From Escherichia phage vB_Eco_OMNI12, in the sequence record OL362041.1: 64,000 bases of DNA. One strand, written 5' to 3'. The notes under the pieces were generated by a model, which was given only the letters and a program-made list of their open reading frames with translations, searched no databases and had not been told where the DNA came from. The position numbers and the translations under genes are program-made. Shown piece after piece: positions 19,655 through 30,405 of the stretch; position 1 is the stretch's first letter; every line of letters begins with the position of its first letter.

Positions 19655-20062
19655 TCACTCAATTTCAATTTTACTAAATACACAGAATAAGATAGAACAG
19701 ACTATATAAGCACCACACACAGATTGAACTAATACCATTCCAAAGAACCAAACAATATTATCAAACAATGTCTGTTTTACGTCGAAAGGACGTAAACTTA
19801 CAGTAATATTATCGCCTTTTTCTATTGATGAATACATCTCTGGTGAAATATATTCGCTAAATCTATAACCGTCTTTGAGTTCATATACGGCAATAAACGA
19901 TAAACTAGACCCCTTTCCTTGAGTTCCTGTAAGGGTATTAACTACAGTAACATCATAATCTTTATAATGCATATAATCATTAATAGCATAATAACCATAT
20001 GCAACTACTACACATAAACAGCATATCAATAAATTCAATCTTTTAATTATCAACTGTTTCAT
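19655..20062 (-). CDS. membrane protein
   Basis: 135 aa; hydrophobic helices at both ends. Confidence 0.5.
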   Translation of the reverse strand: MKQLIIKRLNLLICCLCVVVAYGYYAINDYMHYKDYDVTVVNTLTGTQGKGSSLSFIAVYELKDGYRFSEYISPEMYSSIEKGDNITVSLRPFDVKQTLFDNIVWFFGMVLVQSVCGAYIVCSILFCVFSKIEIE

Positions 20063-26250: not shown

Positions 26251-26637
26251 TTATTCGAGGGAAAGAAGATATTTGCTCTGGTAAAACATCCCAGTAATAT
26301 CATCTATCGTGCTTTGAATGGCTGGAGGCATTTCTTTATAAATGCTGTTAGATTGGTCTAGTATGCGATCAATCATTTTAATTGTGTCGGTAGGAAGTTT
26401 ACTGGCATCTGGAATAGAAGGCGTGTATTTTCTACCAGAATACCCCAAATATTGCTCACCAAATTTATCAATCAAATCTGGCAACTCAGAGAAAATAAAA
26501 TCGTATGCTTTGTGTCTAGCATAACTTTTAGTTTCAAAATGCGCAGAATGAAAATAAGCTTGTGCAGCCATTAATAAACCTAAGTATTCATCTGCCTTTG
26601 AAGGTTTTCCACTTTGTGAAAAGTCGCTGAATTTCAT
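26251..26637 (-). CDS. hypothetical protein
   Basis: ORF track 128 aa. Confidence 0.5.
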
Positions 26638-26927
26638 TCAGTCTCCAATTTAATGTTCATAATTCTAGCGTATGATTGTGCCATCTCCGCGCCTCGCTCT
26701 ATACATTCAAAATCGGAAGAGCACGGGTCATTTTTATAAGTCGTTCGCATAAAACTATAGAACTGTTCAGATGATTCTACGCTTTTGTTTTCAAAAAGCA
26801 TATAAACGTGTCTAATACCAGATTCCATAAATTTATCAAAATGAGGATCGACATTCGCTTCAATTGGTGGAGATAAAGCAAACGCTAATCCTAGCATGGC
26901 AAATAGTGCCGTTGCTTTTAAGGCCAT
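26634..26927 (-). CDS. rI: lysis-inhibition regulator rI
   Basis: 97 aa; N-terminal signal-anchor MALKATALFAMLGLAFALS; length equals T4 RI. Confidence 0.75.
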   Translation of the reverse strand: MALKATALFAMLGLAFALSPPIEANVDPHFDKFMESGIRHVYMLFENKSVESSEQFYSFMRTTYKNDPCSSDFECIERGAEMAQSYARIMNIKLETE

Positions 26928-27194: not shown

Positions 27195-27776
27195 CTAACC
27201 GAGCTTTTTAGTTAATTCATTCCAATGTTTTCTACACAAAGAAACATAAATTTCATCACCAATACAGATTTGATTACCTTCTTTAACTGGTGTTCCATCT
27301 TCCATTAATCGAGCTGTCATAATAGCTTTTTTACCACAATGACAAACTGCCTTTAGTTCAATAAGTTTATCTGCAATCGCCAAAAGTTCTTTAGAACCTT
27401 CAAATAATTTTCCAGCGAAATCAGTCCTTAGCCCATAAGCCATAACAGGAACATTATATGTATCAACAATTCGACTTAATTGATGCACCTGTTCAGTTTT
27501 TAAAAACTGAGCTTCATCTACAAATACACAATGAATATCTTTTTGTGCTTCAGCCCATTTATAGAACTCAAAAATATCCATATCATCCGTAATAATATTC
27601 GCTTCCTGCTTAATTCCAATGCGAGAAACGACTTCACAGACAGAATCGCGAGTATCAATAGCAGGCTTAAGAACTAATACACCCATTCCGCGTTCTTTAT
27701 AATTATGTGCAGCAGTCAAAAGAGAAGCAGATTTTCCAGCATTCATTGCTGCGTAAGTAAAAATTAAACTCGCCAT
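27195..27776 (-). CDS. tk: thymidine kinase
   Basis: 193 aa; P-loop AMNAGKS, Zn-ribbon CHCGKKA...CRKH. Confidence 0.9.
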   Translation of the reverse strand: MASLIFTYAAMNAGKSASLLTAAHNYKERGMGVLVLKPAIDTRDSVCEVVSRIGIKQEANIITDDMDIFEFYKWAEAQKDIHCVFVDEAQFLKTEQVHQLSRIVDTYNVPVMAYGLRTDFAGKLFEGSKELLAIADKLIELKAVCHCGKKAIMTARLMEDGTPVKEGNQICIGDEIYVSLCRKHWNELTKKLG

Positions 27777-28365: not shown

Positions 28366-28553
28366 TATTCTTCTACATGTTGTTTACGACCTTTCCTATC
28401 AATAAAGGTATATTCAACGAATGTTCCAATATAGTCTTTATCTACATCATGTGGACTATTAATTGGGCATTTAGTACGGCAAATGCGTTCCCATTGACGA
28501 ATAATTTCCACTTTGTTTTTAGGATCAAACGGATGCGGGTAATGTACTTTCAT
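28341..28553 (-). CDS. hypothetical protein
   Basis: ORF track 70 aa. Confidence 0.45.
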   Translation of the reverse strand: MKVHYPHPFDPKNKVEIIRQWERICRTKCPINSPHDVDKDYIGTFVEYTFIDRKGRKQHVEEYCLKVTWL

Positions 28554-29004
28554 AATCCACCACTATTAAATCAATATCAGGAGTAAACATGTCGATTAAT
28601 TTAGAAACCTTATCCCAATCGCCGCCAGCAATACCGCAACCTATGCGTGGAATGTAAATTACTGGTTTAAACAAAAGGGTTTCTGCCTGTAGATTTAATT
28701 CTATCATGCAGTTTACTAAAGCACCATAATCAAGATTAGGACCCGGTTCGTATTGTGTATACAGGTTATAGCATATACCAAATCCCGTAGGGCTATGTTT
28801 AAAAACAATAGACATATCGCCTAATTTATCACGAGAACCGTACTCGGTAGTGGTTTTATCTATTTCTAAAATTTTGGGATAGGCTCTTGCTAATTGACCC
28901 GCTACGCCAGAGCCCATTGTGTGGAAGCAATTGCACCCGTGCGCAATAATATTACCTTGAAGAAATAGGGCGACAATATCGCCCTTGATATATTTTACAA
29001 TCAT
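28525..29004 (-). CDS. macro-domain protein (putative ADP-ribose binding/hydrolase)
   Basis: 159 aa; GDIVALF..GNIIAHGCNC..GSGVAGQL and IGCGIAGGDW match macro-domain signature motifs. Confidence 0.6.
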   Translation of the reverse strand: MIVKYIKGDIVALFLQGNIIAHGCNCFHTMGSGVAGQLARAYPKILEIDKTTTEYGSRDKLGDMSIVFKHSPTGFGICYNLYTQYEPGPNLDYGALVNCMIELNLQAETLLFKPVIYIPRIGCGIAGGDWDKVSKLIDMFTPDIDLIVVDYESTLPASV

Positions 29005-29342
29005 CTAGTACTCAATCCTCGATTATAAGAATCTACTAAACGGTCAACCATTGAATGACAAGCGGCTTTATCTTTCTCCTCCGCAACTGAACATTCTAAG
29101 GTATTCCACTTTTTAGCATATCGTTTTAACAATGTATCATTTTTGTATCTGCTTGATTTATCTCTTTCTCCGTCTTTATATGCATATATTAATTTCTGCG
29201 CAAATTCAGCTTGGCATGCTTTATTTTTCCCGCAATAATCCGCTGCAGTACGGTTTACATACTCTCTAATTTCAGTATATGATGTATCTGCTAACACAGA
29301 AAATGAAATTAATCCTATACATAAAACCAAAATTTTAGTCAT
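29001..29342 (-). CDS. secreted Cys-containing protein
   Basis: 113 aa; signal peptide MTKILVLCIGLISFSVLA. Confidence 0.5.
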   Translation of the reverse strand: MTKILVLCIGLISFSVLADTSYTEIREYVNRTAADYCGKNKACQAEFAQKLIYAYKDGERDKSSRYKNDTLLKRYAKKWNTLECSVAEEKDKAACHSMVDRLVDSYNRGLSTR

Positions 29343-29880
29343 TTACTATTTCCAAAAGTTTATTATTTTTAAGGTAATTAGCCTTTTCTAGGACTTCAGA
29401 AGCATATTTAGAACCTGCTTTAACATTCCATCCCGAATTATAAGATGATATTGCTTTTCTTATATCACCCTTATGTATATTTAACCAATAAGAAAGTTCA
29501 ATGTACGCCCAGGAAGCTGAATTGGACCGTTTATTCAACATTCTTTTTATTTCAGCATCGGTCATATTATAACCAAGTTCCTTGACTCTCGCTCGCATAG
29601 TAGGCAAATAATTTTGGAACATTCCATAAGCGTGATGCTTTGGTTTAGATTTTAAATTAACTCCGCCAGAGCTTTCTTGCCATAAAATAGCAGCCATTAT
29701 ATGACCTAATCCGCTCTTGTGGATATTTTTGTGTGTTTTATATTTTCCATCCTTAGAAAATTGTTCCCCGAATTGATACGCGTAACGCATGTTATCGAGT
29801 TGGACATTACTGAAAGTATGCTCGGAGCTATGTGCCATCATTGAAATGGCCAATAGACCAGCGAGTAGTGCTTTTCTCAT
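29335..29880 (-). CDS. secreted lytic-transglycosylase-like protein
   Basis: 181 aa; signal peptide; ILWQESSGG...GMFQ...SYNSG pattern resembles SLT domain. Confidence 0.5.
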   Translation of the reverse strand: MRKALLAGLLAISMMAHSSEHTFSNVQLDNMRYAYQFGEQFSKDGKYKTHKNIHKSGLGHIMAAILWQESSGGVNLKSKPKHHAYGMFQNYLPTMRARVKELGYNMTDAEIKRMLNKRSNSASWAYIELSYWLNIHKGDIRKAISSYNSGWNVKAGSKYASEVLEKANYLKNNKLLEIVND

Positions 29881-29887
29881 GCTTACC

Positions 29888-30349
29888 TCATTGAGTTTTA
29901 ATTACTGCTTTAGAAGCCTTTCCTGGTAAACGACGACTATTGATAATTGCCATCCTGCATTGAAGCGACGGGTCTTTGAACTTCGCATTAGGTTTACAAA
30001 CTGTAAATCCAAGCCAAAGATTTCCATCTGTGATTTCTAAACGTCCAGGACGGTATTCAACCCCATCAATAAAATCCTCATCAATGTCAGGACGCGGAGG
30101 CATACTCAGGAATTCATTAACTTCTAAAACATGGTCTTTTATTTTGTGGAATAATTCAAAAACATATGTCTCATCAATCTCCCGTTGAATTGCACGATCA
30201 AGAAGATGCTGAGAATATTTTAGATGAAACGATGAGACCCCTGCTGCTTTTGATGCCTCACGAATCTCATTGTTAATTTGACGAAACTCCGACTCAAAGT
30301 GACGACGAAGCTTATTTCGACGGATAAAAACTTCTGTATTGATAGTCAT
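29888..30349 (-). CDS. regB: endoribonuclease RegB
   Basis: 153 aa; MTINTEVFIRRN N-terminus; same length as T4 RegB (identification from memory). Confidence 0.65.
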   Translation of the reverse strand: MTINTEVFIRRNKLRRHFESEFRQINNEIREASKAAGVSSFHLKYSQHLLDRAIQREIDETYVFELFHKIKDHVLEVNEFLSMPPRPDIDEDFIDGVEYRPGRLEITDGNLWLGFTVCKPNAKFKDPSLQCRMAIINSRRLPGKASKAVIKTQ

Positions 30350-30370
30350 GTTGTTCTCCTCTTAACTGAT

Positions 30371-30405
30371 AGAAAAATTATACCACAGTCAAGAGGAAAA
30401 GTAAA
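30371..30405 (-). promoter_or_regulatory. T4-type early promoter
   Basis: -35 TTTACT (30400-30405), 17-nt spacer, -10 TATAAT (30377-30382). Confidence 0.6.

Follow-up and report, generated by a model that had tools for sequence, protein, structure and literature searches.

Slt70, MltC, MltD, MltE and MltF (Pfam family PF01464, glycoside hydrolase family GH23) are lytic transglycosylases that have in common a Glu-Ser, a GxxQ and a YNxG motif, together with targeting to the periplasm. Here we describe two adjacent genes, vs.1 and vs, on a 64,000-nt stretch of the genome of Escherichia phage vB_Eco_OMNI12 (sequence record OL362041.1; hereafter, the window). The product of the first, Vs.1, carries the same three motifs and is likewise predicted to be periplasmic. 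Compared with Slt70 and the Mlt enzymes, however, Vs.1 is a bare domain of ~163 residues, devoid of a lipid anchor, of the superhelical U and L domains and of LysM- or ABC-type modules. It is also phage-encoded and made early, and it is only 13-19% identical to those proteins; its reaction chemistry is putative.

Another term of comparison is EtgA of the type III secretion systems, a small, Sec-exported single SLT domain, as Vs.1 is predicted to be. VirB1 and the plasmid protein P19 are small specialised lytic transglycosylases of the same kind. The activity of EtgA is controlled by its partner EscI, and an EscI-EtgA fusion is named in the title of a structure. In contrast to the EtgA type, Vs.1 has no known envelope-spanning machine to serve, and its putative partner, the vs product, is a predicted disulfide-bonded four-helix protein, unrelated to rod proteins.

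A working model for Vs and Vs.1 comes from phage T4 itself. T4 Spackle (gp61.3), a helical protein of 97 aa with a 22-aa signal peptide and one disulfide, is a 1:1 periplasmic inhibitor of the lysozyme domain of gp5 (PMC7650644). Spackle is a small, helical, disulfide-containing protein made early, as Vs is predicted to be, and belongs to the same phage. However, the target of Spackle either enters from the exterior or escapes from assembly; Vs.1, in contrast, is co-translated with Vs, and the binding of Vs to Vs.1 is putative. Tse3-Tsi3 and the inhibitors PliG, Ivy and MliC offer a second parallel, in that a gene for an enzyme is followed by one for a small exported protein, as in vs.1-vs; both Tse3, as complexed with Tsi3, and the g-type lysozyme bound to PliG are in fact among the structural neighbours of Vs.1. 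To our knowledge, the known inhibitors of muramidases and lysozymes are mostly beta-rich, or otherwise unrelated to the Vs fold. Unlike what one would expect in an effector-immunity pair, losing vs.1 carries a cost of its own in the transposon data discussed below, meaning that the phage benefits from Vs.1, which is more than a toxin in need of neutralisation. We use both Spackle-gp5 and the muramidase-immunity pairs as functional analogies only.

A last term of comparison is the T4 factor tau, described as a modifier of the host valyl-tRNA synthetase (ValRS) and entered in databases as Vs (PF26829, phrog_1256). The open reading frame (ORF) of the window is the one entered as vs in all databases, and its predicted mature size of 11.0 kDa is close to the 10 kDa reported for the factor, but the topology that we predict for Vs, outside the cytoplasm, is different.

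Both genes of the window are named T4 early genes, already known. T4 ORF 61.4, that is vs.1, matches the 181-aa protein with 100% identity, and T4 vs (ORF 60.9, 115 aa) shares 96% identity with the 113-aa protein. An initial annotation of the window, made from the sequence alone, had drawn these same two ORFs, ascribed signal peptides to both, and taken the larger one for a lytic-transglycosylase-like protein separate from the lysozymes e and gp5. All of this agrees with what we found. The roles in superinfection exclusion or lysis control that it put forward are guesses. It had missed, on the other hand, the T4 names, the published SLT match, and the fact that the ValRS label of the smaller ORF is contradicted by its export signal. 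Taken together, the data make it on balance probable that vs.1 and vs encode an early, translationally coupled periplasmic pair, in which a lytic transglycosylase acts in one pathway with a small helical protein as its partner.

The Pfam SLT profile (PF01464) scores 25.1 bits (E 1.4e-5) on residues 61-154 of Vs.1, above its gathering cut-off of 21.3, and it matches 56 of the 63 Vs.1 homologues that we aligned (E <=0.01). Throughout this 63-sequence alignment, which reaches down to 40% identity, E69, G86, Q89, Y147, N148 and G150 are invariant and S70 and S71 nearly so. The Glu-Ser catalytic motif, motif II and motif III of the family-1 lytic transglycosylases are therefore all present: WQESSGG and YNSG had been spotted in the initial annotation, and GMFQ is a further one. 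In a comparison with E. coli Slt70, hhalign placed WQESSGG...GMFQ on RQESAWN...GLMQ and E69 on E505 of the precursor, in an alignment that was short and not significant (E 0.34). We take residue 505 of the Slt70 precursor to be the catalytic Glu478 of the mature enzyme.

The AlphaFold 2 (AF2) model of Vs.1, whose domain is confidently predicted (mean predicted local distance difference test, pLDDT, 89.3), has a lysozyme-like alpha-helical fold, and its top Foldseek matches were MltD and Slt, at a probability of ~1.0. For the mature protein we computed a mass of ~18.8 kDa and an isoelectric point (pI) of 9.7. Judging from the model and the motifs, Vs.1 is predicted to consist of a signal peptide and a lone SLT/GH23 catalytic domain, with Glu69 as the candidate catalytic residue; an SLT-like fold, as the initial annotation had anticipated, is thus backed by the Pfam match above the cut-off, the invariant E69 and the confident model.

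A GH23 fold could also belong to a hydrolase of the goose-type-lysozyme or chitinase kind, or to a non-catalytic murein binder. In favour of such a function one may note that the Pfam score exceeds the cut-off by just 4 bits and that, in sequence-level searches, no PDB chain was matched by either protein or by either family profile (nor did NCBIfam or PADLOC yield a family). Hydrolysis by goose-type lysozymes uses further acidic residues besides the catalytic Glu. In the Vs.1 alignment, the only additional invariant acidic column is E128, while D108 is nearly invariant. The Glu-Ser, G-x-x-Q and Y-N-x-G motifs, by contrast, are those of family-1 lytic transglycosylases and do not vary, and the invariance of E69 speaks against a protein that merely binds murein. 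We consequently deem these alternatives improbable.

The SLT similarity of vs.1 is already known and not new. The match was published for six T4-like phages, with credit to an earlier PSI-BLAST analysis (Nolan et al. 2006, PMC1524935), and some GenBank records already label vs.1 as 'transglycosylase SLT domain-containing protein'. In the literature we found no biochemical or genetic study devoted to Vs.1, and a 2020 paper (PMC7650644) still introduces T4 as having two lysozyme genes, e and 5.

Export signals were assessed through a heuristic with three requirements: net positive charge ahead of an uncharged run, a Kyte-Doolittle (KD) mean of >=2.0 over 10 residues, and a -3/-1 site occupied by small residues. 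Of the 109 ORFs in the window that are >=70 aa long, only five passed, namely vs.1, vs, rI, the ORF at 19655-20062 and one weak case. The antiholin gene rI (26634-26927, minus strand; phrog_1246, lysis inhibition), which lies ~2 kb from vs.1 and vs and has a known periplasmic site of action, served as a positive control. Both Vs.1 and Vs show the n-h-c organisation of a signal peptide, and in both the -3 and -1 positions are taken by small residues. The heuristic was also passed by 59/63 Vs.1 homologues and by 48/50 Vs homologues, the failures being threshold near-misses or truncated gene calls. This conservation implies that the signal peptides of the two families are not due to chance.

Conservation in Vs.1 is lower in the N-terminal region (37%) than in the mature part (63%), and in the AF2 model residues 1-20 have a pLDDT of 58-62, as opposed to >90 in the domain. 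The Vs model behaves similarly, with values of 51-54 for residues 1-20 and ~95 for residues 21-110. A Vs.1 homologue of Cronobacter phage leE (L010:1426-1938) is annotated from an internal start and hence without a leader; the near-identical gene of Klebsiella phage RCIP0006 (L009:1309-1950) has an N-terminus 43 residues longer, with a signal peptide. The start codon of the leE gene has probably been mis-called.

Might the Vs.1 leader instead be a signal-anchor-release (SAR) sequence or a permanent anchor, holding the enzyme inactive at the inner membrane until it is freed late as an accessory lysis enzyme? The Gly, Ala and Ser residues in ALLAGLLAISMMA look somewhat SAR-like, the nearby rI antiholin uses such a domain, and SAR endolysins are common in phages. 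However, the uncharged stretch of Vs.1 comprises just ~13-16 residues, rather few for spanning a membrane, and canonical -3/-1 sites come after it. Furthermore, holin T, lysozyme E and spanins already explain how T4 lyses its host, and Vs.1 is expressed early to middle, not late. A SAR-type role thus appears very improbable.

In the Vs family, the signal peptide is conserved in kind and not in sequence, as far as the predicted leaders tell. Every full-length member starts with 1-2 basic residues, followed by a hydrophobic run and an A-x-A-like junction, and yet the leader sequence drifts and its length varies even between close relatives; the length differences and most of the substitutions between such relatives fall inside the leader. 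For example, Vs of the window differs from T4 Vs (L070:887-1234) by a two-residue deletion within the leader, which reads SF--SVLA in the former and SFSASASA in the latter, each followed by DT. All of 21 additional Vs representatives open with a hydrophobic leader, one of them with a lipobox. This relative, P0133, has a lipoprotein-type leader (LIVFALSGC before K, with the lipobox LSGC) and no A-x-A site; its sequence would make it a lipid-anchored version of the Vs domain.

The family is small. Word-indexed searches gave 6, then 51 clusters, and an exhaustive profile search over 1.84 billion representatives returned only 26 Vs relatives, all of them single-domain proteins of 77-134 aa; no wider family that could lend Vs a function emerged from that search. 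Four cysteines (C37, C43, C84 and C95) are invariant in 50/50 Vs sequences, and 48/50 have exactly four Cys after residue 22. The spacers are variable, with 5, 6 or 11 residues within the first pair and 9-10 within the second, a pattern that suits disulfide staples. In the AF2 model of Vs (pLDDT 86.9), helices comprise residues 12-37 (the domain part from about residue 20), 41-61, 68-84 and 89-110, and each Cys pair flanks a helix-turn-helix junction, a modelled geometry that suits two local disulfides. The computed mass is 13.0 kDa for the precursor and 11.0 kDa (pI 8.9) for the mature protein. As for known inhibitors, hhalign detected no homology between Vs and T4 Spackle, and the all-helical Vs model matched no known family of lysozyme or transglycosylase inhibitors, either by sequence or by fold.

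These features are at variance with the name of the protein. Databases universally present Vs as a ValRS modifier: its sequence places it in phrog_1256 ('valyl tRNA synthetase modifier') and in Pfam PF26829 ('ValRS_modifier', precomputed on all homologues), and the GenBank records agree. If the label is right, Vs is the cytoplasmic tau factor that binds ValRS, its N-terminus is used for export only partly or not at all, the synteny with vs.1 is inherited, and Vs.1 acts alone. In support of the label, a citing paper credits the binding to ValRS to Müller & Marchin 1975/1977. In addition, the basic character of mature Vs would suit the tRNA affinity of the modified enzyme, which is reportedly raised.

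A ValRS modifier would be expected to reside in the cytoplasm and to have no export signal. For Vs, the leader, the lipobox in one relative and the four invariant Cys, which fit an oxidising compartment, predict the opposite; an n-h-c leader with an A-x-A-type junction, kept in 48/50 members while its sequence drifts, would be odd in a cytoplasmic protein. Moreover, Vs homologues diverge to 25-33% identity between phages of enterobacteria, hosts whose ValRS should be nearly alike. The size is also telling, because the 11.0 kDa of mature Vs is nearer to the reported ~10 kDa factor than is the 13.0 kDa of the precursor, which would imply that Vs is processed and hence exported. With an N-in, C-out leader, Vs would lie across the membrane from ValRS, and the cytoplasmic ValRS-modifier label is therefore hard to reconcile with the predicted topology.

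In the full-text literature, which did not extend to the classical primary papers, we found no paper that ties ORF 60.9 experimentally to ValRS or treats its leader, and accordingly no accessible evidence that this ORF encodes tau. The original GenBank entry leaves ORF 60.9 unnamed. There is also a precedent for the mis-assignment of a locus, as the T4 RefSeq note on gene 40 (L069:4050-4394) reads 'misidentified as spackle gene'. On these grounds we regard the cytoplasmic modifier of the label as the less likely reading of Vs, yet a rival to be taken seriously. The new point of this analysis is that the label clashes with the conserved export signal of Vs, with its four Cys and with its coupling to vs.1.

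The linkage between the two genes was evaluated in 51 viral contigs gathered with the Vs.1 profile (39-100% Vs.1 identity), by scoring the downstream ORF with a hidden Markov model (HMM) of the Vs family. The ORF directly downstream of vs.1 matched this HMM in 51/51 contigs, and in 50 of them vs starts between -8 and +3 nt from the vs.1 stop. The pair is kept in Gelderlandvirus, Jiaodavirus, Krischvirus, Dhakavirus and Acinetobacter phages, while the flanking ORFs change. Such conserved, tightly coupled adjacency is what one would expect of an enzyme and its partner, with the exceptions in other genera that we describe below.

Data on expression and fitness are available for T4. In T4-infected cells both Vs and Vs.1 have been detected, with kinetics that are early for the RNA and middle for the protein (PMC9697503 supplements). 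A transposon study, HIDEN-SEQ (preprint 10.1101/2025.11.20.689424), classed both vs and vs.1 as non-essential. Nonetheless, after liquid competition insertions in these two genes were ~5- to 25-fold rarer than in their neighbours: the mean counts in LB were 26.6 for vs and 22.6 for vs.1, vs 178.6 for regB, 289.6 for tk.4 and 652.1 for vs.3 (HIDEN-SEQ Data S8). A similar depletion of vs and vs.1 is seen in two further data sets of the study (preprint Data S3, S4, S8).

In M9 glucose, vs was the most depleted T4 gene, with a log2 fold change (log2FC) of -2.19 and an adjusted p reported as 0.00000 (<1e-5); for vs.1 the log2FC was -0.87 (p 0.0055, adjusted p 0.155; HIDEN-SEQ Data S8). Insertions in regB were commoner in M9 (log2FC +1.17; HIDEN-SEQ), and since this upstream gene is not depleted, strong polarity is unlikely. 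The authors of the screen put the need for vs in minimal medium down to ValRS (preprint 10.1101/2025.11.20.689424), and in favour of the label, the lack of vs does most harm in this medium, in which the capacity for translation could be important. A common fitness profile fits, on the other hand, vs and vs.1 acting in one pathway, and is silent on whether Vs restrains or helps the enzyme.

Several considerations weigh against a periplasmic Vs/Vs.1 pair. Early work ascribes to the vs gene a cytoplasmic activity, the binding and stabilisation of host ValRS by a factor of ~10 kDa, and Neidhardt and Marchin are said to have found that the modification of ValRS acts in vivo and rescues a thermolabile ValRS. 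Adjacency alone is weak evidence of interaction, given that gene order in T4-like phages is largely inherited. Nor is it universal: in Slopekvirus and Pseudotevenvirus vs lies ~1.1-1.2 kb downstream of vs.1, with two or three ORFs between them, and we detected no Vs in the 1.5 kb that follow the Vs.1 relative in Aeromonas phage phiAS4, Kuttervirus or Felixounavirus. This separation in some genera counts in favour of the ValRS label. The transposon phenotype of vs.1 could be partly polar on vs. The signal peptides were called by a home-made heuristic and by conservation among homologues, rather than by a trained predictor such as SignalP, and our search of the literature found no published experiment on localisation, signal-peptide cleavage, enzyme activity or Vs-Vs.1 binding. 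Finally, the four conserved Cys of Vs could bind a metal instead. Zinc or another metal is a less likely explanation of these residues, given the leader and the variable loop lengths. On the side of export, by contrast, stands the report that Vs with an N-terminal His tag, produced in the cytoplasm, was insoluble (PMC8076793).

A periplasmic pair would work as follows. The genes regB, vs.1, vs and tk.4 are transcribed leftward together, with vs.1 and vs translationally coupled via their 8-nt overlap. Early to mid infection, Vs.1 and Vs would be carried by Sec across the inner membrane into the periplasm and shed their leaders. There, Vs.1 would cut the murein glycan strands of the host sacculus, probably leaving 1,6-anhydro-N-acetylmuramic acid (1,6-anhydroMurNAc) ends, and Vs would be oxidised by the host Dsb system, so that disulfides C37-C43 and C84-C95 staple its helix hairpins. 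Vs would act with Vs.1, most simply by binding it, and in doing so may restrain, stabilise or target the enzyme. The purpose would perhaps be a limited remodelling of the cell wall, more important in minimal medium.

We propose only tentatively, as a possibility that we would not bet on at even odds, that Vs is really a periplasmic, doubly disulfide-bonded partner of Vs.1 (whether as inhibitor, stabiliser or targeting factor) and that Vs.1 is a third, overlooked T4 murein-cleaving enzyme. If Vs is such a partner, the tau/ValRS activity might, with comparable reservations, come from another ORF of the tk-regB region, or else from an association outside the periplasm-directed pool.

As regards its surroundings, the locus lies in a T4-type (Tequatrovirus) genome, and bases 28500-30400 of the window are 99.5% identical to Escherichia phage vB_EcoM_OE5505; 499 phage records cover >=80% of these bases. 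All real genes of the region are on the minus strand and are transcribed in the order regB, 181-aa ORF, 113-aa ORF and macro-domain gene, with tk (27195-27776) further on (Table 1). The TGA stop of regB sits in the GAGG Shine-Dalgarno sequence of vs.1, and tk.4 begins within the last bases of vs, stop codon included, the two genes sharing 4 nt (ATGA). A consensus scan revealed no excess of sigma-70-type sites in the region as a whole; the site upstream of regB is likely, judging from its match to the consensus, to be the early promoter of the regB-vs.1-vs-tk.4 string.

Table 1. Coordinates of vs.1, vs and associated features in the window
Feature	Positions	Strand	Remarks
vs.1 coding sequence (181 aa)	29335..29880	-	Candidate exported single-domain SLT/GH23-type lytic transglycosylase
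vs coding sequence (113 aa; 115 aa in T4)	29001..29342	-	phrog_1256 E 7.5e-40; PF26829; small four-helix protein, labelled valyl-tRNA synthetase modifier, predicted exported
Vs.1 predicted Sec signal peptide, residues 1-18, MRKALLAGLLAISMMAHS; likely cleavage between AHS and SE or between MMA and HS	29827..29880	-	Heuristic + homologues
Vs predicted Sec signal peptide, residues 1-18, MTKILVLCIGLISFSVLA, followed by DT	29289..29342	-	Heuristic + homologues
WQESSGG, SLT motif I, residues 67-73; candidate catalytic Glu69 codon 29674-29676	29662..29682	-	
GMFQ, SLT motif II, residues 86-89 (Slt70: GLMQ)	29614..29625	-	
YNSG, SLT motif III (AYNAG type), residues 147-150	29431..29442	-	
8-nt overlap of vs.1 and vs, ATGACTAA; vs start codon within vs.1 end	29335..29342	-	
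regB, first gene of tight early gene string	29888..30349	-	PF10715 E 1.4e-68
tk.4 / adfM macro-domain gene	28525..29004	-	Pfam Macro
Sigma-70-type promoter-like site, TTTACT-17-TATAAT with TG, upstream of regB	30377..30405	-	Consensus match only

The product of tk.4 has been named AdfM, an anti-DarT factor that counters the DarT2 toxin by taking ADP-ribose off DNA (preprint 10.1101/2025.11.20.689424). A cytoplasmic gene that counters a host defence is thus translationally coupled to two genes for predicted exported proteins. The 5' part of tk.4 also contains a perfect G+C-rich hairpin (AGGGCGA...TCGCCCT, 28967-28985), which in the consensus scan looks terminator-like on both strands; it may be due to chance or be an RNA structure within the coding sequence.

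Other leader-bearing ORFs were encountered. In Salmonella phage S16, Klebsiella phage KSKp and an Acinetobacter phage, a third such ORF of 130-141 aa, belonging to phrog_4957 (unknown), directly follows vs (L002:2366-2767, L003:2363-2755 and L006:2288-2713); the mature N-terminus is WEKLPGYPE or similar. This ORF is absent from the window and from T4. The vs region of T4-like genomes hence seems to collect exported proteins. Elsewhere in the window, the 135-aa ORF at 19655-20062 (minus strand; phrog_2547, of unknown function) has a strongly hydrophobic N-terminal segment, MKQLIIKRLNLLICCLCVVVAYGYY (KD 3.6), with the look of a signal anchor.

With the SLT identity of the larger ORF already published, the point worth following is the second ORF, Vs. 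Vs.1, if its assignment is true, would add to T4 a third murein-cleaving activity besides e and gp5, and one exported early. If Vs is periplasmic and tied to Vs.1, the minimal-medium phenotype would point to cell-wall handling and not to translation. In that event a 50-year-old label, which has spread to hundreds of phage genomes and to the name of a Pfam family, would need revision.

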